From IMG/VR virus record IMGVR_UViG_3300011991_000001: a DNA stretch of 64,000 bases; one strand, written 5' to 3'. Origin of the DNA: an uncultured virus (IMG/VR IMGVR_UViG_3300011991_000001) (Duplodnaviria; Heunggongvirae; Uroviricota; Caudoviricetes). Both the position numbers and the translations under genes were made by a program. Positions 1 to 44,154 of this stretch are shown one piece after another. The number at the start of each line of letters is the position of its first letter. Position 1 is the stretch's first letter. The notes under the pieces were generated by a model. The model did not search any database. It saw only the letters and a program-made list of their open reading frames with translations, and had not been told where the DNA came from.

Positions 1-71
1 ACAACGATGAGCATCGTCATATGTATCATATAAATTCATTATTATTATTCATCTCCCTTGAAAGGTTAATT

Positions 72-335
72 TTAACGATTATCACAACCACCTTTGCACA
101 ATGAACAGTATTTTTTCATCGCCCTGAAACTGCATTTACTTGTGGGGTGATTACAAGGAGTTCTTTTTATCATAGCATTTAACAGTAAATGAATTTTATT
201 ATATGCTCCATAAAATATATTACTTGGACTATAGCATTTTTTAGCATTGCAACCGATATTTTTATCTTTATATTTACACTTATCACAATTAATATAATTC
301 ACAAATTCACTCCTTCCTCTTTCTAATACCATCAA
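72..335 (-). CDS. Cys-rich hypothetical protein (start probably internal)
   Basis: ORF track; stop overlaps junction site 59-74. Confidence 0.55.
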   Translation of the reverse strand: MMVLERGRSEFVNYINCDKCKYKDKNIGCNAKKCYSPSNIFYGAYNKIHLLLNAMIKRTPCNHPTSKCSFRAMKKYCSLCKGGCDNR

Positions 336-344
336 AGATCAGTT

Positions 345-749
345 CTATAGGGATTCTATTTTTCTTTTTTCATTTTCTTCTTCTACAATCTTAAAGAATT
401 CACTACCTTTAATTTCTTCAAATCCTTCTGGATTACTAAAATCATGTTCACCTTCAAATGAACAATAAACCGTATCACCAATATTAAATAACCTGTTTCT
501 TGTTTTTCCATAACCCCTATCAAAATAGAATTGAATAAATGGTTTATGAGTAGGAGCAATTTGTTTTTCTTCTAATAAATCAACCCATGCTTTATTTATT
601 TTTGAAGTTTTCTTAAATGCCATTAATCCGTTATCTACAGGTTTACATAGTATTTTGCCAAACTTTTCTAAGTCTTTTTCAGTTGGGACTATGTAAAAAG
701 CTGAGTTTGAACAATAATATGAATGCGTATCTATTTCATATTTATCCAT
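345..749 (-). CDS. hypothetical phage protein
   Basis: 134-aa ORF on dominant strand; stop overlaps junction site 332-347. Confidence 0.6.
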   Translation of the reverse strand: MDKYEIDTHSYYCSNSAFYIVPTEKDLEKFGKILCKPVDNGLMAFKKTSKINKAWVDLLEEKQIAPTHKPFIQFYFDRGYGKTRNRLFNIGDTVYCSFEGEHDFSNPEGFEEIKGSEFFKIVEEENEKRKIESL

Positions 750-2355
750 AAAATCCTTAGAAATTATGTTTATTTTTCCTCATTGTTCTTATGAGTAAAA
801 TAGTCTTTATGAAGCTTTGATTGTTCCGTTACAATAAAATACTTTTCCATTTAATATGTCCTTCTTCCTAAATTTATTTATATTAGCATAAAATCTAGTT
901 TTCGATGTATTACTTATCTATTAAATTAATAGCACTTCCTTGTGGTTTGTCTGAACAAACTCTCAATTTCCCAGGAATTAAACCTTGAAGCATTTCGAAC
1001 ACATCTACTTGCTCTTTAGTCATTGCTACTGGATATAAGGTATCATCTTTTATGTAAAATAAAGCTAAACCATCTTTCACTTTCTTCATCCTTTCTTAAT
1101 AGCATCAAAGCCAGATTTTATATTATCTATTTACATTTTATATAAACAGGGCACTTAATTATGTTATCATTCCCAAAACCATCTCCAAACTCAATTCCAT
1201 AGTGATTTTCTCCACAACCATCACAAGTAGGTATCTCAAAGACGCAAGTATCACATAAATTAATTTTTGTATCAATCATAGTATCATCTCCCTTCAACTA
1301 TTCAATTTATCTTCTTTCCAATGGCAATGTACTTTAATCTAATTTTAATTCTATGAAGAACATTTTTAAGTGATAATTCATCCTTATGGCAATTCATTTT
1401 CTCCTTAAATTCATCTGGCACTTGAGTAGTCATTATTTCTTTTTGGAAATCCATCAAATAACTCTCCTTTCCAACATAAAATGTATCTTTTAAAGTAACT
1501 CCATCCTAAACTTAATACCTTCTCCAACATACTTATTATATTGATCCATCAACTCATATCCATCTAGTGCGTCAATAATTACATCAGTCATCGTATCATT
1601 GTTTACCTCTACAGCCATTCCTAATAATGCATATAATAATAATTGTTCATGTATTTTATCCATTTTTAATTCCTTTCCAAATAAAATGTTCTTTTTATCG
1701 TACTAGCATATTCATGAATACTTCTTGATTATTATTTTCATATATTGAAGATACAATTAGTTTGCTTTCTTTATGTAATCCCAATCTCTTTTTGTTAAAC
1801 TCCGGCAAAGGATATTCATCACCAATTTTCCATAGTTCTTTCATTTCTTCTAGACAAGAATTTACAAATTGGAAACACACACATGTATTATCAGAATTCT
1901 CTTTTGCTAAATCTATACCTATTACATAATTATTCATATCGTTCCCTCCTCCCACGAAACCATAATTTCATAGTATGTATTATTTATATTGAATAACCCA
2001 ATAAATCACATAGAACCAACTAAAAATTCCATGTAGGATTGCCCATAATATTGAATGATTTGTTGTCCATGACAATATGATTGCTATTACTGTACCGATT
2101 CCAATGCCACTTGAGCTTGAGGAATTGTTGTTAATGATATTCACCTTCTTTCCTTATAAAATAGTCCTTTTAATCACACTGCAAGCTACTAATTTCTTCC
2201 CCACAACAAGGACAATCAAAAATAAGCACATCTATACCTTCATATGGTTCTGTTCTTTTAATAGTTACTTCCATACTATCAAACAACTCTCCGCAAATAG
2301 GGCATTTATTATCTATCATATTATCTCCTTTCTAAAAGCACAGGAAATTAGTCTT

Positions 2356-3633
2356 TTAATTGTAGCTGGGTGTACTCTTATCTGTTCTAAGCTTCTTAAA
2401 GATTGGGAATCTAAGACTAATACCTCCTTGAGCATTCTTGCTTTCTTCAAAGTATTGAACCTCAATTATTCTCTGTAAATACTCTTCTTTGTTGTTCCAG
2501 ATATATGATCTATCGGAATCTGTGAAGCCCGACCCTACTCCGCAATTAAACCCTTTATAATCAACAATCAAAGCTCCTAATTTGCCCTCATACTTGCCTG
2601 TGCCCTCTTCAAAACCAATTACCCTAATATCACACGTAGACATCACTTTAACCTTTAGAATGGAGTCTGAACGCTTACAGATATAAGGTTTATCCATATT
2701 AACCATTAATCCTTCTACTTCTTTTTCCTTAGCCCAAATCATCCACTTTTCAACTTCTGATAGATCACTTCCTATATACAGAGACTTAACTTCGTTACAA
2801 TGTAGGAATGTATTATTCTCAAAAACTGTTGTTAGCATTAGTTTGCGGAAAACGCAATCAGTTTTAGACTTTCCGTTTTGGAAATCTTCTAATGGCAACA
2901 TATCAAAAATATGATATACTAACCCTTTTTTATTTGACCCCTTGCTTCTAGCTTTTGATGTTGTCTCAGCATAAATCTCAATTGTGCTGCCCTGTATATC
3001 TGCAATTAACTCCCCATCAAAAACAATATTGTCTTCTTTTAGATTTGCAATGTCTTGTTCGATTTCCTCCAATCCTTCATATTTTTTACCCTGTCTCGTA
3101 AATGATTTTACAACACCATTATCTTTAACTACTACGCATCTGTTGCCATCTAGCTTCTCACTCACAACAAAGTCACCTTTGATTTTTTGTTTATGATCTT
3201 CAAATTTCTTAGCTAACATAACACTGAATGTTTGTTTGAAGTCACTACCATATACCTTATTAAGCGTACCGTCTGTGAGACCCATACTGAGATCCTTAGA
3301 AACGATTTTGACAAGGAAATCTCTTAATATTTCAGGCTGTGATCTAATAAAGTTCTGGACTAAAATAATATCGGTATCTCTGCCAGAATTATGTAGTTTA
3401 AGATAATCCATTACATCAATAATTGTTAATGTAGATAGTTCTGATGGTAATTTTAACAGCTTATTTATTTTCTTTTTACTCAGACCCGTCAAAATAAAAG
3501 GATCGTATATAAATTGCATTACCTGTTTGAATAATATATTTTCACTGTTTTCTAAAAGGATACCCTCTTTATCGTTCCTGCCAGATGTACCTTGAATTTG
3601 ATGAACAATCCTTAATACTTTTTCCATTCTCAT
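2356..3633 (-). CDS. lig: ATP-dependent DNA ligase
   Basis: Motif I EKLDGNR, FDGEL, EGLMV, LKVK, C-terminal OB fold with VGSGF and LRFP. Confidence 0.95.
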   Translation of the reverse strand: MRMEKVLRIVHQIQGTSGRNDKEGILLENSENILFKQVMQFIYDPFILTGLSKKKINKLLKLPSELSTLTIIDVMDYLKLHNSGRDTDIILVQNFIRSQPEILRDFLVKIVSKDLSMGLTDGTLNKVYGSDFKQTFSVMLAKKFEDHKQKIKGDFVVSEKLDGNRCVVVKDNGVVKSFTRQGKKYEGLEEIEQDIANLKEDNIVFDGELIADIQGSTIEIYAETTSKARSKGSNKKGLVYHIFDMLPLEDFQNGKSKTDCVFRKLMLTTVFENNTFLHCNEVKSLYIGSDLSEVEKWMIWAKEKEVEGLMVNMDKPYICKRSDSILKVKVMSTCDIRVIGFEEGTGKYEGKLGALIVDYKGFNCGVGSGFTDSDRSYIWNNKEEYLQRIIEVQYFEESKNAQGGISLRFPIFKKLRTDKSTPSYN

Positions 3634-3767
3634 CTCTCCTTCTTTCTTTTGAAATAATTCCTACCCGATATAAGAATTATACCATAAAGTAGGAATATGT
3701 GCAAGTAAATTATATATATGTAGTAAATATATTATTGGGGGATGAAATCAGAATTTGATATGGTAAA

Positions 3768-4334: not shown

Positions 4335-4397
4335 ATAAAGATTGTACCATAGTATGTATTCGTTTGCAATAGTTTATATATAATTATATATTACTCG

Positions 4398-5009: not shown

Positions 5010-5928
5010 TTATGCACTTACTCTTTTCTATTTAAGATGATATTATTTATATTAGGATCAAATAAAACGGTTTTGCTAGTATTCTTAATACTTATCCGAC
5101 TCTTCTATACACTTATCACACAACCAAAATACATATCCACAACTATTGTCTGTATATTCATCTCCTGTTCCTTCCTCAATCTCTTTCTCACATACCTCAC
5201 ATATTTCATTCATAAATTTACCATCCTCCTTTTATTTATCCGATAAAATGCATTTTTCGAGGGATTTACTGATTTTGTAACCTGCGTGTAGCAAGGGTTA
5301 CAGCGTTTGTCTAAAAAACATAAGTCTCTTCAAAATTGCTTGTGGTGAATATTCAGGTTTCAAAAGTATTTCCTCTCCGAACAACATCCTGAGACAAATG
5401 GACTCTGTGTGTTTCTTGCAGATTACTAAATATTCACAGTCTGCATGGATGTATTCACAGTAATTATCCATTATTGAATCCCCTTAATCCATAATAGCCA
5501 CATGTCGTCTTCTGGATAGAATATATCTGGATTAGAAGATTTGTTAATATTATAAACTAATTGACCAAATCTAAAATCGGGATACTTCTTCCAACAAATT
5601 CGTAGCTCTTCAATAATTTCATCAATACGTTCTGGATCTCTCATTATAGCTCCTCCTCTTTCTATCCTATTAAATCTGTATTTTCTTTATTTTATGGTCT
5701 TTAAGCCTTTTCTCCAACATTTTTGACAATCTACATGTTCTGGGCATAATACTGATTCATCACATAATCCAAATTCGTTAGGGCAAATACTTACAGAAGA
5801 ACTACCCAATATCTCAATAGTTTTGTTTAACTGTCGTTGTAGTTTAAGAATAATATCTTTATCCTCAATACACATTTTATTACATCTCCTTCTTATTTCT
5901 ATCCCATGAAATTACTCTTTTATATTAT

Positions 5929-10002: not shown

Positions 10003-10087
10003 AACTAAAACCTTCTTTATAATTATTTATTACTTTACAATATGTAAATGAAAACTGCTTATCCACCTCCTTTAACTGTATAATACT

Positions 10088-10116
10088 ATTGTACTACTAA
10101 TGATATATAAAGTCAA
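10088..10116 (-). promoter_or_regulatory. sigmaA promoter, near-identical to 31626-31655
   Basis: TTGACT-TTATATATCATTAGTAG-TACAAT. Confidence 0.65.
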
Positions 10117-10388
10117 GAACTATATTTAATCTTTCTCTGAGTAATCATAAACTACCACCAATAATATTGTACATATCTCTTGCCCCTGATCTTCTTGTAA
10201 TAACAGTAAGTTCCCAACCTTTATTATTTTCAGTCATGCTAAAAGCTATATGTCCACATCCTGAACTAGAATCATAATACTCGAATGTCGAATTACCTAA
10301 TTCAGTTTCTTCGCATTTATTTATTAAGCCAAGGATACGTTTTGTAGTTATTTCATCAATATTATAGTTCTTAGTCATACAATTCCTC

Positions 10389-11216: not shown

Positions 11217-12269
11217 CTAAATATAGAGGTTAATTAAATCCTTAGTTTTTTGAAAATATTTCTCTCCGTCAAGTCCTTTTTCATTAGATCCATACTGAAA
11301 TCTTTCATTGAGAGAGATATAGTCCTTTTTAGTTAATTCTCCATTAGCATCTTTAATCACTTTAGCTGCGTCAATGATAGCACTAGTCCAGAGCGATGAT
11401 ATATTTAAATAGGGAGCATTTACCCATGATTGGATTCTTTGAATTCTATTAGCAATTAATTGGTGATCTATCTTACCAAATTTATTCTTGCCTGGCACAC
11501 GAAAAACATATTCCGTTTCGTTAATTGGGAATCCCTTTTCTGTTTTCTCGTAAATTCCTTCATCGTTCTTTTTAGATTTCAATCCATTACCAAAAATATA
11601 GTGCCCAGAATCAATAGTTTTTTTAATTAAATCAAGTGTATAATAATCTACATATAATTCTCTTAATTCGCCATCATTACTTGTTAGATAAATTAACTTT
11701 TCTTCCCATTGGATATCAGTAACTTTAAAATTAATAAATTCTTCTAAAGTGTTCCCTTTTTCAGTACGACCCCTAACTCCTAATCCCAATAATTCAATAA
11801 TTAGTTTATCTTGATAATTTACCAATAATTTTTGCCATTCTCTATTCTTAATTAATGGAATATAAGAGTTTTCAACTGCTTGAATATCAATATAGTTATC
11901 ATAAAATTTTGGAAGAATTAAACCGAAACGATTTTCAAAGTGCCTGACTAAGTTTTTGCTAATACAAAAATCTACATATTTTTTGAGAGGAGATAGATTT
12001 GATTGAAAAGCACTAATCGTTTTGTTTTTAAATTCAGCCAATAACAGCTCATCTCTCTCTTCAATATTGAAATTAAAAATGCTTTTCCCTATTTTAAATT
12101 CGTAAAAATCAGCTTTCTGCAAAATATAAGAATAGAATGTTCTTGTAGAACTAATTTGCGAATCAAGAAATTCCTCTTTGACACGTGGATCAACTTTAAA
12201 TGTCACCTCATTCTCTTGAAACCTATTGTCGTTTATTTCTTCAGTCAACATAAACACCAACCCTTTCAA
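11217..12269 (-). CDS. YopR/MrpR-like integrase-fold master repressor
   Basis: SAM-like N-terminus, LLGLGVRG...EEFINFKVTDI box, no HxxR catalytic motif; directly downstream of DGQHR gene as in SPbeta yopQ-yopR. Confidence 0.7.
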   Translation of the reverse strand: MKGLVFMLTEEINDNRFQENEVTFKVDPRVKEEFLDSQISSTRTFYSYILQKADFYEFKIGKSIFNFNIEERDELLLAEFKNKTISAFQSNLSPLKKYVDFCISKNLVRHFENRFGLILPKFYDNYIDIQAVENSYIPLIKNREWQKLLVNYQDKLIIELLGLGVRGRTEKGNTLEEFINFKVTDIQWEEKLIYLTSNDGELRELYVDYYTLDLIKKTIDSGHYIFGNGLKSKKNDEGIYEKTEKGFPINETEYVFRVPGKNKFGKIDHQLIANRIQRIQSWVNAPYLNISSLWTSAIIDAAKVIKDANGELTKKDYISLNERFQYGSNEKGLDGEKYFQKTKDLINLYI

Positions 12270-13768: not shown

Positions 13769-13773
13769 TAAAC

Positions 13774-15312: not shown

Positions 15313-15446
15313 TTCTCTATCCTCCTCCACATTATACAACTATAATATAATTATACCACAAAACAATACAAAACACAAGTATAAGTAATAAATAAAACAA
15401 ACTACTCACAAAAACATTCGCAAGTAGTTTTACTATAATTATTAAA

Positions 15447-20195: not shown

Positions 20196-21834
20196 GCATA
20201 ATACTACATTTTTTATTAAAATATGCTATATTTCGCATGTTTTATGTAAATTAAACAACTCATTCATTCTACTAAATATCTATTTGCATAATCTCAAAGA
20301 ATCTCTTCTTTAATAAAGCATTCTCTTTATCCAACATAGCCATCTCAAGTATATGTAAATTAATCTTTTTAGAAATCATACTTCTATCTTTCAAAATCTG
20401 TCTTAACTCTTCCTGCTCATCTTCACTTACAATTTTCATTATGTATTACTCTCCTCTCCTTTAAACTTTGCATTTTAATCTAGGATTTCCTTATATAAAT
20501 TATGAATTTCTCCACTAATTTCATCTAGACTTCTGCTACAAGTTTTATAATCGGTGCAGAAAAAATCATAGTTTTCTTTGGCGTTTTCTTCATTGATGAA
20601 ATCAGGGTTTTGAACTGCCCACCCTAACATAGATACAATCTCTCCCAATTCTCTAATTCTATAAAATAGATCCTTTGACTTTTCAGGATTTAATGTTTTC
20701 ATACTAAGCTTCCCTTCTTTTGTAAATCACATGAATGCAATATTTTAATTGTTTAACTTATAAACTTCAAATATATTACTGCTACCATCGTCATAAATAA
20801 ACCTTGCCTTATTTATATATGTTTCTCCAAGATCCTTTACAACAACCTTTATACCGTTTATGTATGGAGTATATCCATGCTCTCCATCAATTGTATTAGC
20901 GCACATTATTACATCCTTCATAATTACAGTATATCCTTTTCTGGATACTTGAATTTCTACTGGTATTGGTGGCAACGAGTCTAACAAACCCATCATCTTT
21001 TTTAAATCATCAATTGATATACTATCTTTTGTACTCATATTATCCTCCTTTCTAACATCAAATACTTGATTGAAGCTGATTACCCAATACTAAAATTACA
21101 TAACCCTTTGACTTCTTCAGGCTCCTCAATCCGTTCATAAATCCCAAAAATATAATTAAACATATAAAACCATCTTTTTGCTAAACATGTCTGATGCAAA
21201 CCAGATTCTATGTATTCAATAACCGCATAATCATAAATCGTCTCATTAATATCGCAACAATTTTCTCTTACAGATTGATCTGCTTCTTTAAAAGTTTCTT
21301 TATACCCAAAGCACCTTGAATCCGTCACACCATAATCAACATTTAATTGCTCAATTCCAGTAATAAAAAACATTATATTGCCTCCTTTCTATCCACAGTT
21401 TTCAAATTCATTAACTTGATAAGGAACTAATTCACCGTCATACTGGATCTTATAAGCAATACCATTCTTATCAATTTCCACACAACAATCCATGCAATAG
21501 TACCCACTCCAGTCTATTTTGTTTACGTGTTTACTTCCACAATTCGGACATACATCAATAGTTTTTGTTTCTTTTGCCATTATAATCACTCCTAAATATT
21601 ATTTATTAGTCTATGTATAATTATACATTTTACTATAATTTAATTACATCATCCAATTCTTCTTCTATGTATTTTAGTAAAAATTCCTCGATAGTCATAT
21701 CTCCATTTATAGAATTAACTTCTATATTGCTTTCCTTTAATTTCTTAATTGCTAATTCAAGCCAACTTATATGATAATAACTCATGAAATCACCTCCTAA
21801 ATACTTCGAAATTAAAGTTTGATAGGATTTTACC

Positions 21835-22524: not shown

Positions 22525-22604
22525 TTTTACACCACCCTTTAGTATATCATCTCCTATATTTATTATATCATACGATACTATATTGCCAGAATAAAATCTT
22601 GAAT

Positions 22605-23030
22605 TTAAGCCATGCTACTATATACTTTTGCTTCAATCTTACTAGCAATATTATCTCTTGCCTCCATATACTTGAAACCATATTCTTCATACTTTACATT
22701 CATCTTCTTTAAGTAATCACCGATTTCTTTATATGATTTATTTTTGAGTTCATCATTCGGCATATCATAATAAATTGTATAATCACTTGTTGTGCCACTA
22801 ACCTGAGACCAACTAACTAAAACATTTTCTTGAGTATTCAACACATTAATTAGGTAACCATAAATTTCATCTCTTATGCTACCACATACTGAATCAATAT
22901 CACAATCATCATATGGACTAAATACAATTAGATTATTATTATCTGGCTCATGGAAAACAGAATACTTTCTCTTATTGTCCATCTTATAAAGTTCATGTTT
23001 AAGATTTCTTAGATATAATAATTTATTCAT
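22605..23030 (-). CDS. hypothetical protein (cassette)
   Basis: ORF between junction sites 22592 and 23095. Confidence 0.6.
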   Translation of the reverse strand: MNKLLYLRNLKHELYKMDNKRKYSVFHEPDNNNLIVFSPYDDCDIDSVCGSIRDEIYGYLINVLNTQENVLVSWSQVSGTTSDYTIYYDMPNDELKNKSYKEIGDYLKKMNVKYEEYGFKYMEARDNIASKIEAKVYSSMA

Positions 23031-23107
23031 TTTCTATCTCCTTCATACTTCTATTTACTCGACTATGCTTCCATATGCTAATATACAAACACGTTAAAAT
23101 CTTAGTT

Positions 23108-23626
23108 TTATTCTTCCAATTCACTTTCTTCTTCCCAATTCATAATTTCTTTAATTATCTTACTATTATCATTCATAAAATCTGTTACAAATTTATCTAT
23201 TAAACCATCATACCTACCATCAGCTAAAATTTCCATTATATAATTAATATCATTTAATGAAAAAGCATCTACTAGGCTAACATCACTTTCTTTAAGGTAA
23301 TCATTATAATAATGCCTTTCTTTTATTAAATAAGCTAAATCCCTAATCAAATTAAACTGTTTATCTTCCATCTCCTCCATATCTTCTTCTTTTTTATCAA
23401 CTAGCAAATGTATTGTATCGTTGAAAATATTATAATAATCTCCAGATAACCCCATAGCTGGTAGTTGTTCTTTCAGGCTAAATAAGTTATTAATCCTGTA
23501 TGATAACACATCTAATTTTTTTTCATAAATAACTATTCTTCTAGGAGTATGTTCTTTACCTAAAATAGATAATATTTTATGAATTTGTTCATTTGTCATG
23601 TAATTTTCTTTGTTAACAATGTCCAT
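23108..23626 (-). CDS. hypothetical protein (cassette)
   Basis: ORF between junction sites 23095 and 23687; RBS GGAGG. Confidence 0.6.
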   Translation of the reverse strand: MDIVNKENYMTNEQIHKILSILGKEHTPRRIVIYEKKLDVLSYRINNLFSLKEQLPAMGLSGDYYNIFNDTIHLLVDKKEEDMEEMEDKQFNLIRDLAYLIKERHYYNDYLKESDVSLVDAFSLNDINYIMEILADGRYDGLIDKFVTDFMNDNSKIIKEIMNWEEESELEE

Positions 23627-24250
23627 ATAAACAACCTCCTCAAATTACTTATACTATTCTATCCATAAAAATATTTTTTATTCCCTTAAAACCACATATT
23701 CGAGTGCTATTAACTAAATAAATCATTACCATCAATAAGTACAAAATCTAAATATTTCATACACTTTTCTTTAATCGAATCAATAGTATCTCTCGATTCA
23801 TCTGTAGTACCTTGTTTTAAGATTTCTAACTCACTTTCTGGTTTCATTTTAACGTTTCTTGGCGAATCATTATAAATAGTGTAGTGATAGATTTTTCTAT
23901 TACTAATACGCATATCCTGATCTATTTTAACAGCTCTTCCTTCATACATAAATAACACTTTAGTTTTCTCCTTTCTAACACTTCAAATTCACGGCTCATA
24001 TGTTAAAAACAATTATTTAATTCGTTCATAACGGTATTCACATTGTGGGTAAACTTTTTGCATTGCTTCAATAATTGAGTCTACATCTCTACCACTATTT
24101 GATATACAAATTGTTCTCCATTCACCTAATTCATGATTTTTATAAATTAAAGCAGATTGAATTAAATACATTTTTATTACCTCCATTATACTTCCATATA
24201 CTCTATAATGCTTCCATTTCCTAGCCCATAAATCCCTTGAAATCCGTCTT

Positions 24251-24835
24251 TTAAGCTAGCTTATTATACAATACACCATTGTAATCAATTAACGCCTTCT
24301 CCATTGCGGAAATAGATTTACTAATATTTATAGCATTACTATCTAAAACCTGTTGACATGCCAAAGCTAATTTACTCGCTAACTGTAGTAATTCTTTCTG
24401 ATCTAATGCATCTGGATTAAGAATATAGTCTGTGCTAACATTAAATACTTGTGCAAATATATTAATATCATTACTATTAATTTCCGTTGTAAATCCTCTC
24501 TCAATGTTGGATATTTTTTGTACAGTGAATTTGCTCTTATCTGCAAGCTCTTTTTGAAGCCACCCTTTCCCAAACCTTAGTTGTCTTATTCTATCTCCAA
24601 TTTCAGACTCTTTATTAGGTACTACATCTCCTTCACCACGCATTATATAATCAACAGATACCTTTAAGACTATCGCTAGTTTAGATACTCCCTCTATGTC
24701 AACAGGGGTATATCCTCTTTCCCAATTTGAAAGAACTTGCCTAGATACACCAATATATTTTGCTAATTCGCCTTGCTTGAAATCATTATCATCACGTAAA
24801 TCTCGTATGCGCTCTCCGATTGATTTAGTCACCAA
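24251..24835 (-). CDS. tandem double XRE-HTH regulator
   Basis: Two repeats IG.RIR.LR...Q.ELA......SN.ERG...VS.DYI. Confidence 0.9.
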   Translation of the reverse strand: MVTKSIGERIRDLRDDNDFKQGELAKYIGVSRQVLSNWERGYTPVDIEGVSKLAIVLKVSVDYIMRGEGDVVPNKESEIGDRIRQLRFGKGWLQKELADKSKFTVQKISNIERGFTTEINSNDINIFAQVFNVSTDYILNPDALDQKELLQLASKLALACQQVLDSNAINISKSISAMEKALIDYNGVLYNKLA

Positions 24836-27950: not shown

Positions 27951-28742
27951 AAACTGCTTCTCCTTTAAATGAATTCTTTGTCATCACATATACATTTTGT
28001 GATCTCTCTTTTAAACTATTGCTGATCTGAACAAAACCAAATTGGGAATCCTTCTTTGTATGTACAACTAGGGTTATCACAATTCTCACATGGAAACCAG
28101 TAAGTATCTTGCTCCGTTTGATATTTAGCAAAATTATACCATTGCTCAAGTTGTTCTTTTGTATTATAAATTCCTTTGCTATCCAAAAATTCTTTAATTT
28201 CTGATGTTAATTGTTTGTCTTCCATAATAAATCCCCTCCTCCCTTAAAATATGATTTTTATCGTGGGGTATTATTTTAGTAACGGGCATACAACTTCATT
28301 GCAATTTCCCCAACTACAACCTTTAGGATGATTTTTTTCATGTCTGCAAGTATCAACTGTTATATTTTCTTCAAAACCGTATTCTTTGCATTTGCATATG
28401 TTTTGTATAAAATCAAAATATACCTTGTATGTAATCATTATTTATCCCTCCTTTAAAAGAACAGTTTCCTTGGTGAGCATAAATTTATTTTCGCACTCAC
28501 GCCTCTTTATTCACACTCTGGACATTTAATTGTTCTTGTAGAAAAATCATATTCAATTTTATTGTCCCTTAATGCCTTTAAGTAACCCTCAATTAATTCA
28601 TTAATATTATCATAATAATCGCCACAAAGTAATTCAGTGCCATCTTCTTTTACTAATTTTCTGTATTCACAATTGCAACTTGCATATTCTTTAATTAATA
28701 TCATGTTTATTATTTCTCCTTTCTTTAAGAATAATTTACCTT

Positions 28743-28856: not shown

Positions 28857-29419
28857 TTGTCCAATCAATGAATCCATTTATGTTAGTCTATCCAAATAAA
28901 TTGACCACAATGAGGACATAGCATTGTATCCTTTTCCCCATATTGATTAATTCCATTGCATTTGTCGCATGGATAATCATTACCATTATTACCTTGGTTT
29001 TCAAATCTACAGCTTACACAATTCTCATATTTCATAATAAACTCCTCCTTCCTTCACCCTTCGAAAGATGTATTTCTTGGGGTCAGATTATATTTCCAAC
29101 CTTAATATCGTCCTTATGTTCTTCTTCAATTTTTACTAATAAATCATGTTGCTCAATTAGTTTTTGTTTAATCAAATATTTATTATTTTCCTTTGAATTC
29201 GGAATATCAATGCTTACGCTCATATTATCTTGAATACATTTTGCAGTTATATTAGTTTTTCCATTCATTCTTCTTTCTGAATATATATTAGTTACCTCAA
29301 ATGTTAATTCTTCCATTACTGATTTACTTCCTTTCTTATACCAATAGTCTAAACTGCTACTATACATTATTTATTCCTCCTTTATATCCTATCAAAGTGA
29401 CGTTTGAATGGGTAAACAT

Positions 29420-29779: not shown

Positions 29780-31031
29780 ATTAATCCTTCTTTCTTCTTT
29801 CTATCCATCCATTAAAGTCGGTGTTTTATTTCCTAATACATTTTTTCAATTCACAGTATATACTAACTGCAAATTCTTCGCTTTTAAATTTAGAATGTTC
29901 GCATCTATAATCTGGATATCTAGGACAGGGTAAACATTCCCATGTGATTTTTAATGGTTTACTCTCTGGTGGATTGACAATATAAATTAGAGTATTATCA
30001 AAAACTAGTTCATCTTTCAAGACGTTCCTCCTTTCATAACATAAAATTAACATTTGAAAGTATTGTCTTTAACTTCTTCCTAGAATTTTATAGTTGCCAC
30101 AATTAATATAAATCCAATTGCCACTGTGCCTACGATCCAAGGTAAATATTGATAAAGCCAATCGTCTTTTAAATATTCTTGTTCTGCAATTTGTTCTTCA
30201 TATATTCCAAATACATAATCTTCTATGTTGCTTATGTTTTGTTTAAAATTACCTCTTGTCATTATGTAATTTCTCCTTTCTTATAAAATAAAATCAGCAA
30301 TTGATCTTATCACTCTTTAGATAACCTCTTAATACATTGCAGTATTAGAATTTAAGCTCCACATCATGACAGCTATGGCAAAAGGTATGAGCAATAAAAT
30401 TATTACAACCTTATACATTTCTTTTCTGTCCTTAGGACTGTTGCGCTTACGCCAACCGAAGAAAAGATAAATATTGTATGGTATAAATGCTATTACGAAG
30501 GCAAATTCATTTTTTAATATGAAGGTAAGTATTATCATAAGTGCAATTGTACCGACAGAACCAAATATAAATAACTTCTTATCTTTATCCCATTTATTCA
30601 TCATCTGCACCTAACCTTCCTAGCTCATTTCTCTAACACTTTGTATAAACAATAGAAAACAAACACAAAGGATAATATTGCACCCATCAGGTAATAACCA
30701 AATGAGGCAAAGAATACGAATACGAAGAAAGTCCCCATAAAAATACCCAACCAATCACCTAGTCCATTATTATTCTTAGTCACCCCTTATTAACCTCCTC
30801 TTTATTAGTCTTCAATTTTACATCAATATAATCCCAAACTATAACCAACGCTCCAATATCAATAAACATCCTTGGTAAATTCCATTGTATATAATCAATA
30901 CAAGCAGTCCAGAAAAGTGAAAATAGAATCGAACCAATTATGAAGCTCCTTAACCCATCCCATATTCTAAGCAGAAATCTTTTTCTGTCATCCGATTTTT
31001 CACTCATGATAATTCCTCCTTCTTAAAAATC

Positions 31032-31604
31032 TTAAAATAATGAGAAATCCATAATCCTTTCATTATCTCTTTCTTCTGTGAGATGTAGATATTTCAATGT
31101 CATTGCTTCGCTACTATGGTTTAATAATCTCATAATCAAACTCAAATCTTTAGTTTTCTCATACAATCCACGGGCATAAGATTTTCTCCATGAATGAGCT
31201 GCGCAGTTCTTTAAACCAACCTTCTCAGTAGCTTCTTTAAAAATACGATGGGCTTGCATTCGAGATATTGGTCTGCTGTTACCATCTTTATCTTTGTCTC
31301 TTGCTTCAAACAAGAAATCATTATCTTCCATGTCCTTAGTGTATTCGTTAATGGTATCTTTTAGAAAAATATTCATAGGGAAATGTTTATGCTTTTTTGT
31401 TTTCATTTCAATAATCTCAAGAAATTCTTTATTCCTAACCATACCTACTGTAATAGTTAATGCATCTGAGATCCGAAGTGCTGTATTTAATAGAAGCAAT
31501 AATAAGAATTCATTCCTATCACCAAATGTTCCATGATGTATTGATTTTCTGATATTTGCTATTTGGTTTTGTTCTACTGGATAAACCTTTTTCATCTGAA
31601 TCAC
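31032..31604 (-). CDS. minimal tyrosine recombinase (catalytic domain only)
   Basis: Catalytic set intact: LRISD, KTKK, HSWRK, LNHSS, TLKY. Confidence 0.92.
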   Translation of the reverse strand: MIQMKKVYPVEQNQIANIRKSIHHGTFGDRNEFLLLLLLNTALRISDALTITVGMVRNKEFLEIIEMKTKKHKHFPMNIFLKDTINEYTKDMEDNDFLFEARDKDKDGNSRPISRMQAHRIFKEATEKVGLKNCAAHSWRKSYARGLYEKTKDLSLIMRLLNHSSEAMTLKYLHLTEERDNERIMDFSLF

Positions 31605-31665
31605 CCTCTCAATTCCTTATAACTTATTATACTACTAATGATATATAAAAGTCAACACTATGTAA

Positions 31666-34369: not shown

Positions 34370-36191
34370 AATAACCCAACTCCATTCTTAATTATTATAC
34401 CATACTATATTATAGATTGAAATCTAATATTAAAATAGATTAAATTGTAAACAAATAATAAATTATATTAAACTTATTACTTAGAGAAGTAATTTCTAGC
34501 CCATTTTTGTTCATATGTTTCTGGTTGTGTGAAAAATGATTTGATAAATTTTAGCATTGTTGCTTCACATCCTTTCATAATCCCATAAGTTAGTATCTTT
34601 AAAGGTTTTCTAATGCTTTAAGAACTTCATCATATACATCTGGCATATCACCATCTGCAATTATTTTCTCAACATTTCTTATTAGTCCGTGCTCATTATC
34701 TATAGTCTCCTCAGCATCTTCAATATAATCTTTTACTTTTAACAATAAATCTTTCATACTTTAAAACCGTCCTTTCAATTGCTTATTATATTAATACTCA
34801 TCTTCAGCTTCATTAAAATACTTATAACTATCTTCAACTACTTTGTCACAATCGCTACACATATACCAGAATCCAAAGCCATCCATTCTAGTATATACGC
34901 CAGATGAGTTTTCGCATTTGCAATAATCTACTTCTTTATTATCCATTCAATTTCCCTTCCTCTTCTATTTCTTCTAATAACATTTCTATATCATTCTTTA
35001 GACATGAAATTTTAGTAATATCAAATCCTTCAATATCATCTATTGTATCCTTAGATAAGTTTTTCATAAGAGCCATATCATCAATTGCCATTTCCATTTG
35101 TTCATATGCCTTATCTAAATGCTTCCATATTTTTTGGAGATTGTTTTTCGTTTTGTTAACTCTTTTCATATTAAAACATCCTTTCAATTTACTTGAAACT
35201 CATTTTACTTCCTAGTTTTGTTGCAATATCATTTGCTTTTTCTGTGTTTTCCTTTGCTACAGAAAACCCAAAATTTCCATGATTGTGATATGAAATATTT
35301 TGCACTTCAAATTCATCTATCATATCTAATATTAGCTCTAAACTTGCTGATCTTTCTTTTAGTTTACTTATCTCATCAATAATATAAAGTTTACATTCTT
35401 GATTATTGTCAATCCAATCTTGAGTCATTTCAAATTCTTTCATATCTAAATACCCTCTTTCATTTCTTATCTAATTACATTATAAATGATATAGATCATA
35501 ATTGCAATAGGTAATAATAAATTATTTATATGTAATAAACAGTACCTTTAAAATTAGGATTTTATCCTCTCAGGATCACCCATACATGGTTTGTTATACA
35601 GGTTAGGTGTGATTGTATAGGTATCAAGTTTAAACTCATTAGAGAGTCCATTCTGTGTCATAAAATCAATTGTAGTAAAATCGTCCTCTGAAAGTGTTGG
35701 TATGAGCGTGTTGTAGAAAGGGTAAAACGAGTGTTTTGAAAAAGTATTGACATAGGTAGGCAATCTGTTATAAAAATCCTGAAATCACTTAGTCATATCT
35801 TTATTACAGTTCTGACAGCTCCAAGTACGCATATAATCATTATGTTTGTCCTTTTTACCTCTAATTAATCTTTTGCCACAATTAGGACAAATACATTGTT
35901 GGATACATTGTTCTCTTCTTTTATGTTCTGCGTCTTCTTCTCTTGCTTTGAGTATTGCATTCTGTTCTTCTTGTGGCAGAGCTTTAAATTTCTTTTTGGA
36001 TTGCCCCATCATTAAGCATTAGTGATGTTATGGACGGTAGCACATCACCATGTGGATTATTTGAATTCATATTAATTTCTCCTTTTAAAATTATGCCAAA
36101 ATATTTTACGATCTGTTATAATCGTTGTGTTATACTTGTTATAATAATTACATTATGCATAAGTATACTATTGTTATGCATATTTATACAT

Positions 36192-36608
36192 TTACATTGC
36201 TTTCTTATGTATTGGATTTTTGAGTACCCTTGGAGAATATATTTGATTCTCAGTTAGATTTGTTAGTATTTTATCCTTTCTAATAATAGCTGAATGCGTT
36301 TCCTTGAGATCCTGAAAATTTACATCTGTGAAATTGCTCTTTAGCTTCCGCAATGGTTCAATCTCATTTTTTATGCGTCTACGCTCCACCCGATTTAAAT
36401 ATAACATTTTGGATAATTTATAACCTTCACTGGCATTAAAATTTCCCTTCTCAATCATGTGTAAAATATCTTGCTCCATTAAATCAGTTTGTCTTAATTC
36501 ATTATTTAGCTTGATGAAATCACCATTAATATTATTGAATAATAAAAGCAAATCTTCACTGTAATCTTTAGCTAAACACATTTTATTTTCCTCCTTTGAT
36601 TCTGGCAA
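36192..36608 (-). CDS. coiled-coil hypothetical phage protein
   Basis: QDILHMIE...FNASEGYKL...ERRRIKNE...YSPRVL. Confidence 0.65.
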   Translation of the reverse strand: MPESKEENKMCLAKDYSEDLLLLFNNINGDFIKLNNELRQTDLMEQDILHMIEKGNFNASEGYKLSKMLYLNRVERRRIKNEIEPLRKLKSNFTDVNFQDLKETHSAIIRKDKILTNLTENQIYSPRVLKNPIHKKAM

Positions 36609-38923: not shown

Positions 38924-39085
38924 TTATACAAGTTTAGACTCTACATAATGATAATTTCCTTCAATGCATTCATAAATTGTCGCTACCTTTTCAGTGTCAT
39001 AATGTTCTTTAGCGTGTGTATAATTGCCGTATTCATATTCAAACATTTCGCCTTCATCCATAACCTTTAATATAAACATGCTCAT
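38924..39085 (-). CDS. 53-aa protein, duplicate of 41047-41211 (absent from ORF track)
   Basis: RBS AGGAGG; shares YGNY.HAKEHYDTEKVATIYE. Confidence 0.7.
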   Translation of the reverse strand: MSMFILKVMDEGEMFEYEYGNYTHAKEHYDTEKVATIYECIEGNYHYVESKLV

Positions 39086-41046
39086 TTCTTATTACCTCCT
39101 CTTAGTTTATCATATAACCCTTCTAAACTCATACCATAGTATATTATACCATAATGTATTGCTATGAGCTTAGAAGGAGCTTATGACGCTCCTAATAAAA
39201 GCGTGATTTTAAAGTAAATTAGGATAAAGTGTTATAGGGCACTGCATAACTGTCGTAATATATTCGATAATAAAACTATAATCTTTTGGCGATAATTCAC
39301 CTTTTGTTACTTCATCTAGTGCCTTTTGAACTTTATTCATTATGGAATACATTTTATCTTTTTTCTTTTCTGTGTTCATTTCTTGCCTTTCTTTTTTTCT
39401 TATATTTTTACTTACTTGTTTAACCATCGCTATTTGTCTTTTTATATTCATATCTTCAGCACTCCTTCATATTACAATTATTTCACACTAGCAGGAACAA
39501 CCATATAAATTTTACCTGTAAGATCGTTCACTCCTATTACCTGCCCTTTGATTTTTAATAACATGTTATTCACTTCCTTCACTCTTTACACTGATTTAAT
39601 AGGTTGTGCTGCGCTCCTTATTAAAGTATTTCCCCTTCTTTTGTCCATATGCTCTCGAAGTGAATTATATCTTTAATAATACTTATACCACAATCAGCAA
39701 TTATTTGTCTTCCATCCATAACGAGTAATTCTTGAAATCCCATAATTCTGAATTGGTCATATGATTCTAAAAATGTTTTTTGACCTTGTGTTAATTCGCT
39801 CCATTGTATTAATGGTTTAATTTCCTCTAGTGTATGAGATAAACTGATAATAGTTGTCATTTTCATAACCTCTTTCTTTTTAAAATTAGCTCCCAGATAT
39901 ATGCAAGCCAGTGTTATATTTATTTGAGCTTGCATATATTTACAACTAACTTTCTAATCCCAATACTTTGCAGGCAATAAGATAGTCTTAAAACTAAATC
40001 CTGCTCCATAGGATAGGCGATATTCTTCTAATAAGAATTTCTTTTCTTCCCTGTCCTTTGCATAGTCACAATGTTCATATGATCTTTCATTAGGACACAT
40101 AACTAATAATTGATATTTATAACCATGTTCGGGCGCATATGCTAGCGGTTGACTCATTTTACATAACCTCTTTCTTATTCTTTATAGTCTCGAATTATGG
40201 CAAGTGGTTTGTTATCCCTGCCATAAATCCATACTATAAATATTAGTCAAAATTAAAGACTCTAACTGTTTTCTTTTCTCTATCTGGACTTTTAGAAGTG
40301 ATTCTTGTAACTATATTTCCTTTGCTAGTATAGCTTTTTTCGTTGTGCTCAGAGCCTCCTAGACGTTTCATAAAAGGGCCAGCTTCTACACAATTATTAT
40401 ACTGCTCTTCAGTGAAGTTGGATTGATCTTGATCAACTTCTTGATATACTGTTTTAGTCCCTTCTTTTAATTCGTAGTGAGTCGTAGTTACTTTGCAAAA
40501 TGTATCTTTAGTCATGGTTTAACCCTCTTTCTTTTTTAAATTTAAGTCTCATCAGTAGGAGTTTTACTCCTAGACTAGCATAATGTTTTTGTTATGCTAG
40601 TTTCGACTTTTTAATAATCTTGAATGATAAATGATTCGCTATCTATCATTATTACACTTGTATTCTGTTCTAATTCTTCCATGCTTTCAACACTGTAATT
40701 ACCTTGTAATTCTTCTAAGTTCTCATATTCGGTATACTCACAACAAAGAGCGATAATATCTAATTCCATTTCTTCGCCAGTTTCCTCTTCATAATTTTCT
40801 AGGTAAGCGAATAATGCAATTCGGCCAGCTCTTGAAAAGTTTTCGCTCCTGTTGTATTCATCAAAGGACTGTACAAACTCATTTTCGCTAATAATTTTTT
40901 TCATTTCAAAAACCTCTTTCATTAATTAATTTTTGTTTGCGCTTGATCTCATAACTCATTCTAGCATAATTTTTTGATACTGTCAACTAATTATTTATCA
41001 TTTGTTAAAGTTTATTTTAGAATCAAATGTCTTTTTTATTGGGTAA

Positions 41047-41211
41047 CTATTTAGATTCTACAAAATGATAATTACCTTGATCATACTCATAAATTGTGGC
41101 TACCTTTTCCGTGTCGTAGTGTTCTTTAGCATGATTGTAATTGCCGTATTGATATTCAAATACTTCTCCATCGTCTAGGACTTTAACAATGTATAAGCTG
41201 TTTTTGTTCAT
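41047..41211 (-). CDS. 54-aa protein, duplicate of 38924-39085 (absent from ORF track)
   Basis: RBS AAGGAG; own promoter at 41251-41279; flanked by junction sites 41023 and 41330. Confidence 0.7.
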   Translation of the reverse strand: MNKNSLYIVKVLDDGEVFEYQYGNYNHAKEHYDTEKVATIYEYDQGNYHFVESK

Positions 41212-44154
41212 TCGCTACACTCCTTTAATGTGTTTCTGTTCTTGTTTACTATTTTATACGATATGCAAGCAAAATGCAATAGGTTACAAACAATTATTTA
41301 TATTGAATAGATTACCCTTGTTTATAGCTTGAAAAGTTGCTTTCAATGGGTATATTGATTCTGTTAGGTTTAAAATAGTATAGATGTAAGATTATAAAGG
41401 GTAATAGGTTTGAAGAGCTTAGAAGGGCGTTTTTGTGGCAGTGTTTTTATAATATGAGGGTTGAATTGTGGGAACGTGGGAAATTGGATAAGAAAAAAGA
41501 AGCTTTTCAGCTCCTTAAAGTAAACTTAAAACATAATTCTGACACTTTTACACTTTGGGCAAGTACCATCACTAATACCAAAATTGTGACCGCAATCTCT
41601 ACAATGGTATGATTTTAATGAATCATGTAATACTGCCATTAAACAAAGACCTGCAATAATTATAAATATTTCAATAATTAGCATTTTTCAATCTCCCTTT
41701 TATTAAATAGTATTATTTTCTAATGGACACCAATTAGGGATTATATAAATATCATGTATTGGCGTAGTCTCCTCATTTAATAATGAAGAGTAACATATAT
41801 ATCCCTCGTCATATCTTTGAGATAAACGAGGACAATCTAGACATTTTTTAATAATTAAAGTTATTTTCTTAAGCATGTTTTCACCTCCCTTTATTATGCA
41901 CTTAATAACGCTCCTTTCCAGTATTCATCTATTAAAGTATTAGAAAATTTGTCTATATAATCAATAGAACTTTTCACATCATCAATATTAATTTTACCCT
42001 TGTTAAGATCGTGCATGATCTGATTATAATCTGAATTCATAAAATCCCATATAATTAAATATTGGGGATATGTAAAAGGGCTTTTAGTTCTGAGTGATTC
42101 TAAAATCTTATCTTTAATAATTGAATTAGTGTTTTTCTTTTCTTGCTCTTTAATTCTTCCCATAATTTGACTCATAATAATTTTAGCGTTAATTTGTTCT
42201 GTTCGCTCCCTTTGTTCTCTCATGTATATTTGTTCTTGCTTAATTCTTTTATCGTGATCTTTTCCCCATTGCTTGACTAGTTTAGTATATGACATTTTAC
42301 CATCTCCTTTATATATTATATTGGCTTGATACACTCAGAAATAGCCTTCTAAGCTGTTTAAAATGTTTAGGCGTGAATTAATACCAGATAGAGAAAAAGG
42401 AAGGCTTTAAACCCTCCTTAGTTGGTTAAAAAACTTATTCTTGCTTTGTGGCACTTGATACCTTCTTCATCCATTTTATATTGAAGATTTTCATAATAGG
42501 TGTCAATTTCCTCTAAGTCAAAATGAACATAAGCACCGAACTTTGCGAATGACTCAAAAATTGCTTCAAACATAACCTTTGCAGTCCCTTTAATTTCTTT
42601 ATGCTCTGAGATAATTTTATTTTCAATTTCATATTTTTCCTTTGTCATTCCCAATGTTTTAAGCATGAATGAAAAATCTCTGATTGAATCTCTTTTATCA
42701 ATTTCTAAAACGGTTTGTGCAAAATACATATCGTAGTAAGATTTAAGAATAATTGCTGATTCCTTTTTGTTCATGATATAACCTCCCTTAATTCGTTAAC
42801 TTATTATACACCCATAACAATATTATTGTCAACTAATATATTATATCTCATTTAACTATTTTCAAGTTGGCTATCCATGCAGGTTACAAGATACCATAAT
42901 AGCATAAAACAAGGGTTTGCAGGGATAGTATAATAGATTCTAGCCAGTGCCACAATAAGAGGCTTTTAAGCTGTTTAAATGATTAAATGGTATGATTCTA
43001 TAGACAAAGAAAAAAGACTCTATTAGAGTCTTAAATGTATTGATTAATTATTTTATTCCAGTATTTGCGCGACCTTTTCAAGTGAGTGAAACAATCTGAA
43101 TTAAGAATATTAATAGCTTTTTGAATATCATCTAATAGAGTTTGAATAGTATAGTTTTCTTTTTTCTGCTCCAGAATTTTAATAAGTTCATGGCCTTTCA
43201 GTGGTTCAAAGTCTAAAGTGATTTTATTGATAAGATCATTCATTTTTATAGCTCCTTTTATTTCCATTCCTTAATATCTGTACAACCTGGCAGAATACAT
43301 TTGATTGTTTTGATAGCATCTTCTAAACTTGATTTATTCCAGAATGTTAATGGGTATAATTTATCTTTATAGATTGCTTGTAATTTATATGTGTTTGGTG
43401 GGATTGAATTATATTTCATTTTGTTGATGCTCCTTCATTAATCCCTTTTGATAATCTTTAAATAGTTTTTCACTCTTGTATAATTTCACAAACTCCTTAT
43501 ACTCGTTCAATTCTTCTGCCATTGCCTCCATTGACTGGTGCATAACCATATTAGATTTTATAAGCTGTTCACCTTGTTTAGTATCAATAAATCTTTCACA
43601 GTCGTTTGCTGCATCTTCAGATATCCACTGATCATCTATAGAAGTTATAGTATAAAGGTTAATATTGAATTTGTTTAGTTGGCGCAAGTCAAACATATAT
43701 TTTAGCATTGTTTCAAGGTCTGGACAGATTACTTTTTTAAGGTTAGATAGTTCTGAATTAATAGCCTCATCCTTTTCTGTATACTCTATGGAATAAGATA
43801 CATTGACTCTTTTTGTATAGTCTGGATGAATTCGCGTTTCTGATTGTTTAATTCTCATAATATTAACCTCTTTCATTAATTAAATTTTATCCCAAATGAA
43901 TTCGAATCCAGCAGTCTGGAAAAAGAATAATCCATTTTCTGATTTATAGAACTTTACTGCATCGCCTTGCATTTTAGCGACTTGTTTGTATTCTTTCCAA
44001 CTTTCTCCTTCATCTAAAAGCTCATAGACATCGCATGATTTTAAGAATTCAGCTTCAGATATTTTTTTAGATGTATTCATCATTTCATGCCAGATTAATT
44101 CGTTTGAAGGTGTTTTTCTAAATTTATCACAAGCATTAATAAATTTTAGCATTG

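Follow-up and report, generated by a model that had tools for sequence, protein, structure and literature searches.

Palindromes with junction-specific centres between early genes of an SPbeta/c-st-like phage: candidate addressed joints for gene exchange

Introduction

Phage mosaicism is usually explained by rare recombination events, illegitimate or of the relaxed homologous kind, on whose products selection then acts. Here we consider a family of short degenerate palindromes located at the junctions between small early genes in a 64,000-nucleotide stretch of DNA from an uncultured virus of the Caudoviricetes (IMG/VR record IMGVR_UViG_3300011991_000001; the whole stretch is referred to as the window). 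Each palindrome consists of two inverted arms around a 6-bp centre, a tyrosine-recombinase geometry that a preliminary description of the window recognised and that we confirm. That description went on to propose an integron- or pdif-like array of excisable cassettes. The reading we favour, tentatively and as somewhat short of probable, is that the palindromes are recombinase-type addressed joints that would serve exchange between matching sites of related phages rather than the excision of cassettes.

By analogy, the closest logic is that of engineered heterospecific lox cassette exchange. Heterospecific lox or FRT sites have common arms, identity of the centre decides which sites pair, and two compatible pairs swap the content between them. 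The palindromes share with this design common arms, a pattern of centre-specific pairing and, in comparisons within the SPbeta group, the retention of gene order. However, heterospecific lox exchange is a laboratory design, whereas the palindromes would be natural and genome-wide, with a putative enzyme and a putative reaction. The closest phage precedent is provided by the promoter-early stem-loop (PeSL) cassettes of T4-type phages, which Arbiol et al. (2010) reportedly described as a promoter plus a stable stem-loop acting by homology. In both cases a short conserved element is repeated between small early genes in plastic regions subject to modular shuffling, but the palindromes have neither a promoter consensus nor a stable hairpin, and each copy has its own centre.

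Among natural sites, those of single-recombinase Xer systems appear closest. The dif arms of B. subtilis differ in the CC position. The arms of difSL (XerS) and difH (XerH) end in GAAAA beside the central region (TTTCCGAAAA / TTTTCTTGAAA and AGTTATGAAAA), and the difSL centre is 11 bp long, according to the portion of PMC5357621 consulted. Like these sites, the palindromes comprise two inverted arms around a short centre, with an inner A-run and T-run, and the SPbeta copies have an 11-6-11 layout. They differ in number and placement: dif is single and lies at the replication terminus, whereas the palindromes occur dozens of times per genome, at gene junctions, each with its own centre, and their outer arms vary between phage clades.

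Results and Discussion

A palindrome of fixed spacing between early genes

The strict form of the palindrome, T[ACG]AAA-N6-TTT[TCG]A, has 21 matches in the window, 17 at gene junctions (all in 1-46.6 kb) and four inside coding sequence. The loose form, TNAAA-N6-TTTNA, has 28 matches where 14.66 +/- 3.57 are expected, a count reached in none of 100 shuffles. As a local null we shuffled coding and non-coding segments separately, keeping the composition of each segment. In 300 such shuffles, 1-46.6 kb contained 2.75 +/- 1.67 junction-class sites with a 6-bp spacer (maximum 8), compared with the 17 observed, so that the enrichment at junctions survives a composition-matched comparison. The cleanest control is a scan over spacer lengths k, because it retains local composition. 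For T.AAA-N(k)-TTT.A across the whole window we find 28 matches at k=6 and 26 at k=7, whereas the remaining values of k between 0 and 15 give 5-16 each; at junctions the corresponding counts are 17 and 14 versus 1-4 at k=2-5 and 8-11. Nine of the k=7 matches share loci with k=6 matches, leaving about 22 distinct loci, and one-mismatch variants (e.g. 2343, 5244, 889 and 28454) raise the total to near 30. This agrees with the roughly 30 copies reported earlier, and the five copies quoted as examples are all where they had been placed.

Might the array nevertheless be an artefact of composition, produced by TAA stops that are followed by A/T-rich spacer DNA? The genome has a G+C content of 30%, and the stop codon itself forms the left arm of many copies. 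Yet the restriction of the enrichment to spacers of 6 and 7 already refutes this explanation, the segment-wise shuffles fall far short of the observed count, many copies in relatives are not stop codons, and the element is conserved in SPbeta, where G+C is 35%. We find an artefact hardly credible.

The sites lie between same-strand early genes, often over the stop codon and upstream of the next ribosome-binding site (RBS), which is the site-RBS-gene layout of accessory junctions first described. The left arm doubles as the stop codon of at least 12 open reading frames (ORFs; those ending at 72, 1490, 1695, 2170, 2356, 20475, 22605, 23108, 24251, 29826, 35554 and 39209), where at least 11 had been claimed; the copies at ORF ends 345 and 20745, included in that claim, have one arm mismatch each. 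Most junction copies are found 0-14 nt upstream of the next Shine-Dalgarno sequence, sometimes further, so that this distance varies while the arm spacing is fixed. Between 6 and 20 kb we see no convincing junction copies, only two coding matches and one k=7 match over a -35 box, in keeping with the absence noted earlier for the repressor/agr block; the core had likewise been described as free of junction copies, but one junction match does occur in 46.6-64 kb.

The 17 junction centres are all different, as the preliminary description had it, and every pair is apart at two or more of the six positions. The outer flanks show a mirrored bias: when the sites of the window are pooled with those of its relatives (83 in all), C occurs at -5 in 40/83 and at -6 in 30/83, G at +16 in 46/83 and at +17 in 43/83. 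The CCC...GGG extension to arms of about 10-11 bp that had been proposed thus stands as a statistical tendency, perfect arms of that length being rare. A 28-bp layout with 11-bp arms and a 6-bp centre is present in SPbeta; in the window the outer arms are weakly conserved. The individual sites follow, in window positions and with the strand of palindromes given as ".".

59..74, strand., junction palindrome, sense TAAAA-TTAACC-TTTCA; left arm doubles as stop of ORF 72-335
889..904, strand., variant copy, sense CGAAA-ACTAGA-TTTTA; address also in L011 with unrelated flanks
1105..1120, strand., junction palindrome
1477..1492, strand., junction palindrome (TAAAA-TGTATC-TTTTA); stop of ORF 1490-1663; identical 16-mer in L010, flanks unrelated
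1682..1697, strand., junction palindrome; stop of ORF 1695-1955; address kept in L011, upstream flank alone homologous
2157..2172, strand., junction palindrome; stop of ORF 2170-2319
2343..2358, strand., variant copy, + strand GGAAA-TTAGTC-TTTTA; stop of the DNA ligase gene 2356-3633
3743..3758, strand., weakest candidate; junction-class match within the long gap upstream of the ligase gene
5244..5259, strand., variant copy, sense CGAAA-AATGCA-TTTTA; address also in L011, immediate flanks non-homologous
5907..5922, strand., junction palindrome; address (1 mismatch, plus TGGG) also in L012, flanks unrelated
20461..20477, strand., 7-bp-spacer copy; stop of ORF 20475-20702; metagenome variant diverges at 20475
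22592..22608, strand., 7-bp-spacer copy; stop of ORF 22605-23030; G001 homology ends in right arm
23095..23110, strand., junction palindrome; stop of ORF 23108-23626; G001 homology begins at left arm
24004..24020, strand., 7-bp-spacer match over the stop codon of ORF 24013-24186
24238..24253, strand., junction palindrome (TGAAA-TCCGTC-TTTTA); stop of the helix-turn-helix (HTH) repressor-like gene 24251-24835
28245..28260, strand., junction palindrome; outer flanks C-rich and G-rich
28454..28469, strand., variant copy, sense GGAAA-CTGTTC-TTTTA; G001 has TAAAA here, homology from left arm
29392..29407, strand., junction palindrome (TCAAA-GTGACG-TTTGA-ATGGG); ACCCAT before it in sense
29812..29828, strand., 7-bp-spacer copy; stop of ORF 29826-30053
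30042..30057, strand., junction palindrome upstream of an RBS; kept in G001, upstream flank alone homologous
34762..34777, strand., junction palindrome
35549..35564, strand., junction palindrome; stop of ORF 35554-35763; G001 homology begins at left arm
39196..39211, strand., junction palindrome; stop of ORF 39209-39451
41023..41038, strand., junction palindrome; ACCCAA before it in sense
41330..41345, strand., junction palindrome (TGAAA-AGTTGC-TTTCA-ATGGG); ACCCAT before it in sense

The element recurs in SPbeta-like phages

Judged by its genes, the window is an SPbeta/c-st-like phage, because its large terminase (TerL) matches that of Clostridium phage c-st (71.7% identity) and its gene order matches that of SPbeta, with yonO, yonN, yonJ, yonG, yonF and yonE on one side and yopQ-yopR on the other. 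A YopQ/YopR-like pair, a YonO-sized ORF and the HU-like, exonuclease, TerL and portal genes all occur in the SPbeta order. The bacterial assembly G001 contains a mosaic relative, spread over several contigs; relatives at the loci L010, L011 and L012 complete the comparison set for the window.

The spacing preference extends to these genomes. Copies with k=6 number 9, 13 and 11 in L010, L011 and L012, respectively, against 0-9 at other k, and the G001 contigs likewise show the k=6 motif. In SPbeta, T.AAA-N(k)-TTT.A has 54 matches at k=6 and 49 at k=7 versus 17-34 at other k, and the contrast is sharper in the early region (83-134 kb: 30 and 23 versus 5-14). Of 45 strict TAAAA-N3-10-TTTTA matches in SPbeta, 34 have N6 (counted from the match list), and the reversed control pattern has 15 matches. 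Enrichment is weak in the first 50 kb of c-st (33 at k=6 versus 15-26). The unrelated loci L014-L016 and L018 show no k=6 enrichment, and in L017 the k=6 count (6) ties with k=2.

Eighty-four distinct contexts from the SPbeta group yield the symmetric logo T-Y-T-n-n-A-TAAAA-[N6]-TTTTA-T-n-n-A-R-A, with an 11-6-11 layout. The outer arms are clade-specific, being CC and GG in the Clostridium clade and different in the SPbeta group. We therefore regard the palindromes as what appear to be copies of a junction element common to SPbeta-like phages. No published description of the motif was found in those parts of the literature that were searched, which included the SPbeta review PMC8270828 and excluded supplements; the text of the Goe-phage preprint (10.1101/2021.11.22.469490), insofar as it was covered and again excluding supplements, yielded nothing on the motif either.

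As a side observation, several TAAAA-N6-TTTTA copies in c-st (locus L019; e.g. 29637, 30745, 34304, 41246 and 20282) are followed after 8-11 nt by a conserved (G)AAATTAAATTAAA box. We did not see this box in the window.

Homology breaks at site edges while centres persist

We compared SPbeta (110.8-134 kb, 43 junctions) with phi3T, Goe11, Goe13, Goe14, SPR, SPbetaL1 and SPbetaL3, taking the ends of BLAST high-scoring segment pairs as homology breakpoints, which are accurate to a few nucleotides. Breakpoints were found at all 10 junctions with the motif and at 13 of the 33 others (Fisher p = 0.0007), a contrast to be read with the proviso that the seven relatives are not independent lineages. 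When only gaps of at least 25 nt are considered, the difference persists (10/10 versus 11/18, p = 0.03). Near the motif, homology starts at -7..0 or ends at +15..+22, so that the full 16-mer is always on the conserved side.

What happens to the centre when the surroundings change? In 76 of 98 site-by-phage comparisons the same 16-mer is retained with at most one mismatch, centre included, and in near-identical order (one match is out of place). Neither 40-nt flank is alike in 29 of these 76, one is alike in 31, and both are alike in 16. In 31 distinct contexts similarity is lost no more than 25 nt from the 16-mer, and for 24 of the left and 27 of the right flanks it is lost within 7 nt. The same address, as we call a centre in its arms, is found with several left and several right contexts in mixed combinations, a pattern that would be predicted from repeated crossing-over at the site.

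In the window's own clade, with 77 unique breakpoints, all five breakpoints near strict sites fall at site edges. Address matches between sites and loci number 15, compared with a mean of 0.87 after shuffling of the spacer letters; most of the 15 lie in homologous DNA. The addresses at 5907 (L012), 1477 (L010) and 889 (L011) are syntenic around the ligase gene, and the 600 nt to each side of them contain no tblastx match. Two more addresses recur in L011, 5244 between immediate flanks that are not homologous and 1682 with one homologous flank. Kept centres beside replaced flanks, a strong signal in SPbeta, thus amount to three or four cases here, from three distant relatives. A search with the 20-nt address around 5907 returned only two records that were already known.

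Signals in duplex DNA or in RNA

Given their position, the palindromes might act as RNA elements of polycistronic early mRNAs, for translational coupling or enhancement or as processing sites just after the stop codon. Known leader enhancers are A/U-rich. So are the palindromes, and the dozen or more window copies that overlap stop codons are found just upstream of an RBS. However, 74 sites folded with their flanks have a mean minimum free energy of -4.67 kcal/mol, which is only 0.34 lower than the mean of their shuffles, and the fold predicted for a site frequently differs from the palindrome; since the sites fold no better than shuffles, we reject a stable RNA hairpin. Covariation between arm positions 2 and 15, suggestive in the window alone (3/3 non-A cases pair), fails in the relatives, where TAAAA...TTTGA is common. 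The symmetric outer arms and the conservation of the centre at each site favour duplex DNA, and an RNA element is in our view improbable.

Two further candidates were rejected. Terminator-like sites are not in excess (5 versus 5.9 expected, and 5 versus 5.8 expected in 1-40 kb). As for promoters, sigma-70-like sites are not enriched in 1-40 kb, the palindromes have no -35/-10 partner at a constant distance, and the RBS follows within 0-14 nt. The palindromes are situated inside operons, away from strong sigma-A-like promoters. On present patterns, a duplex-DNA site for a dimeric protein fits best.

A model of addressed exchange

Under the reading we favour, the two arms would be binding sites for a dimeric protein of the tyrosine-recombinase type on double-stranded DNA. 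The sites take the form TAAAA-N6-TTTTA within an 11-6-11 dyad in SPbeta and a relaxed form, T[AGC]AAA-N6/7-TTT[TCG]A with CC/GG outer arms, in the window. The 6-bp centre would decide which sites pair: because it is free between sites and fixed per junction, it could work as an address. A crossover, made by a recombinase rather than by general recombination over short homology, would be productive only between same-address sites of two related phage genomes in one cell, and two such crossovers would exchange the RBS-ORF unit or units between the joints while retaining gene order. Addressed joints of this kind would account for the dyad with its fixed 6-bp spacing and for the centres specific to each site, as well as for breakpoints that fall precisely at the edges and for the retained gene order.

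The same logic bears on the integron or pdif proposal, in which site-RBS-ORF circles would be moved by the recombinase encoded at 31032-31604 or by host Xer. Integron attC sites are about 57-141 bp long and carry paired R''/L'' and L'/R' boxes. There are likenesses: small same-strand ORFs of unknown function are arrayed with an imperfect palindrome at their 3' ends, often including the stop, a site lies at each junction, and a tyrosine-recombinase catalytic domain is encoded within the array. But the conserved element is 16-28 bp long, with one arm pair and no paired R/L boxes, and no IntI-type integrase, attI or Pc adjoins the array; integrase-type Pfam matches in the window are limited to an MrpR-like protein (see below) and, inside the array, a generic Phage_integrase domain of 190 aa. 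The protein with this domain, the proposed recombinase, has no core-binding domain and is absent from SPbeta. Moreover, since neighbouring centres within a genome differ (17/17 in the window), neighbours should not recombine, which argues against integron-like excision of cassettes; three metagenome joints include no circle and no motif-to-motif deletion, and the syntenic order of addresses fits exchange between matching sites, not cassette shuffling. The class assignment and the excisable cassettes of the preliminary description are not supported, and we consider an integron or pdif array very improbable.

A wider claim can be framed, which we offer as possible but on balance unlikely: SPbeta-like phages of Bacillus and Clostridium may possess a natural genome-wide system of addressed joints, with one arm family, a dedicated recombinase-type protein and junction-specific 6-bp centres. 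If so, relatives residing in one cell could trade individual genes or whole blocks wherever their addresses match, and gene order would stay intact. This system would be the natural equivalent of engineered heterospecific-lox cassette exchange, governed by a sequence rule, arms for recognition and centre for address. Such joints would both accelerate and discipline accessory-gene exchange in a large phage family to which both the model phage SPbeta and relatives of toxin-converting clostridial phages belong, and they would explain stable gene order despite turnover of small early genes.

Observations that weigh against exchange at the sites

Several observations count against addressed exchange. 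First, in the window's comparison set breakpoints are not enriched at motif junctions (7/16 versus 30/78 at others, p = 0.78). With about one relative per stretch, this test has low power; even so, the absence of enrichment speaks against a special role of the sites in the window. Many breakpoints fall at stop codons, RBSs, promoters, inside genes or at motif-free junctions, so that the earlier expectation of gene gain and loss breakpoints at the sites holds strongly in the SPbeta group, modestly in the window and by no means exclusively.

Second, the laboratory hybrid Hyb2 (phi3Ts x SPbeta) has two crossover intervals in 100.7-128.7 kb, 1.4 kb and 4.9 kb long. Both are identical in the two parents, so ordinary homologous recombination suffices there and the mapping is uninformative on where within them the crossovers took place; of the four ends of these intervals, three lie right next to a motif copy. 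More generally, 16-28 bp of identity could itself support general recombination.

Third, metagenome contigs from four runs of one study, which drop rare forms, contain three joints, none of them motif-to-motif, and no circles, so the circular or deleted forms anticipated in the preliminary description did not appear. One contig joint does end at a motif arm (20475), with a short side of only 26 letters. Contigs of two runs join 20475 to 22112, leaving out 1636 nt. Because of the 26-letter short side and the unlike sequence beyond it, this joint probably represents a variant present alongside, in which different genes follow the motif arm.

Fourth, no protein could be tied to the sites among the candidates considered, namely an MrpR homolog, a 190-aa recombinase and the YomM family. 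The two that are encoded in the window are:

11217..12269, strand -, MrpR/YopR-like protein with recombinase fold, SPbeta master-repressor family (Pfam PF22822; PDB 8a0a, E 8.4e-7; BLASTP YopR, 4e-8)
31032..31604, strand -, 190-aa tyrosine-recombinase catalytic domain without core-binding domain (Pfam PF00589; alignment to XerC-like chain 4a8e)

Aligned with the XerC-like chain 4a8e, the 31032-31604 protein retains the R, H-x-x-R, H and Y positions. SPbeta has the same motif but encodes no homolog of this protein, which also does not match YopP or YomM; the protein's proposed part as the actor is not supported. SPbeta and the G001 phage share a conserved YomM-family recombinase (32% identity, E 5e-50), encoded in the latter just past the window's right end: the gene (L034 2814-3836, on G001 contig C23) is full-length, with catalytic R, H-x-x-R, H and Y, and is located about 14 kb past the stretch corresponding to the right end of the window. 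Among five YomM-positive phages, four are enriched about twofold for the motif over the reversed control (32/18, 38/17, 71/35 and 45/21) and one is not (41/39). Yet LIBA2945 (60/24) and c-st are enriched though absent from the 151 YomM matches at E 1e-10; in Amboise the motif is not enriched (6/10). The YomM family, as far as these counts indicate, does not track the motif cleanly.

The third candidate, MrpR, deserves separate consideration, as it suggests that the palindromes could be operators of the MrpR/YopR-like repressor, an inactive recombinase-fold protein, and represent the clade's version of SPBRE. The window encodes an MrpR homolog, and the recombinase fold would explain the site geometry; SPBRE, too, is a dyad repeated in intergenic positions in this phage family, and the protein that reads it has a recombinase fold. 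In the part of PMC10516654 consulted, MrpR is without most catalytic residues, and chromatin affinity purification sequencing (ChAP-seq) in SPbeta gives ten prominent peaks for MrpR, each of which lies at SPBRE in a promoter region. SPbeta, however, has 54 matches to T.AAA-N6-TTT.A. Furthermore, the SPBRE that we derived from ten SPbeta upstream regions, ACAAATACAAAWAATATGTATA, with the core ATACA-N7-TGTAT and some ten copies at promoters, is a different sequence; the junction palindromes neither match the 15-bp motif nor share its promoter location. MrpR is accordingly disfavoured as the binder, at least on the portion of PMC10516654 that reports the peaks, and we judge this explanation quite improbable, less so than an integron but more so than an RNA element.

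Two observations adjoin this question. In SPbeta, at 76171-76186 and 129297-129312 (L021 and L022), a junction palindrome stands directly beside SPBRE-like elements upstream of aimR and yosX, a proximity that can be held in favour of the operator explanation; both genes are among the ten MrpR peaks in the consulted part of PMC10516654. In the window, a separate 13-nt element, AATTATTTATATG (families D2 and D6), adjoins sigma-A-like promoters (9 matches versus 1.5 expected). It is exact at 25218, 33430 and 35520, has one mismatch at 3708, 26735, 41292 and other positions, and contains the dyad ATAAAT-A-ATTTAT. This promoter-linked repeat is a better candidate for an SPBRE-like operator in the window than the junction palindrome.

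If not MrpR, might another regulator read the palindromes? The chief alternative to addressed exchange, which we consider a genuine possibility though a doubtful one, is an operator-like or roadblock DNA site for a dimeric regulator between early genes that forms a passive boundary of exchange, general or short-homology recombination resolving at the palindrome because it is the sole conserved island at each junction. Consistent with this, most junction copies precede the next Shine-Dalgarno sequence closely, the site travels with the downstream gene in 6 of 8 G001 alignments (by reading of the alignments), the Hyb2 crossovers lie in long identical stretches, motif-free junctions also carry breakpoints, and no recombinase could be linked to the palindrome. 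What a regulatory site leaves without explanation is the junction-specific 6-bp centre that is kept while both flanks are replaced. In addition, the copies lie inside operons with the strong sigma-A-like promoters elsewhere, and the RBS distance is variable where the arm spacing is constant. Should the palindromes prove to be a regulator's site, they would constitute an undescribed control signal at dozens of early-gene junctions.

Gene content and other repeats of the window

Genes were modelled by a greedy ORF call. The minus strand carries small same-strand genes from 1 to about 46.5 kb, among them an ATP-dependent DNA ligase, two DNA methyltransferases, a Mom-like protein, AgrB, MazF-like toxins and HTH repressor-like, YopQ-like (DndB-domain) and MrpR/YopR-like proteins. 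A plus-strand block begins at 47 kb and encodes an 883-aa ORF (phrog_8308), PhoH, an HU-like protein, an exonuclease, ClpP, the large terminase and the portal.

Searches for closer relatives returned little. By megablast and blastn against phage and plasmid collections, the 20-28 kb region has no DNA-level relative; protein-seeded scans yielded no more than distant loci for the 190-aa recombinase and no matches for ORF 22605-23030; scans of genome contigs found no matches for the ligase and only the G001 contig for the YopQ-like protein; and a genus-level search produced G001 only.

The palindrome-free block of the early arm encodes an AgrB homolog and two MazF/PemK-like toxin genes (16440-17060, 17087-17857 and 19629-20033). 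Paralogous homing-endonuclease-like genes (phrog_4538/12131) at 13774-15339 and 21835-22524 share 57-nt and 51-nt repeats (D7 and D11), and the former occupies the place of SPbeta yopP, upstream of yopQ-yopR. A 69-nt direct repeat, 96% identical between its copies (37549-37617 and 38392-38460; family D3), covers the starts of two small neighbouring genes. A strong promoter, TTGACTTT(T)ATATATCATTAGTAGTA(T/C)AAT, is found at 10082-10118 and 31620-31656 upstream of two gene blocks (family D4), with a weaker third copy at 42797-42833. Finally, TATAACA (sense; TGTTATA on the + strand) has 33 matches in the window, a total that is not enriched (28.4 expected), but 24 of them are packed into 35592-39918 on a single strand, mostly in small-gene junctions, and may form an iteron-like or operator array.

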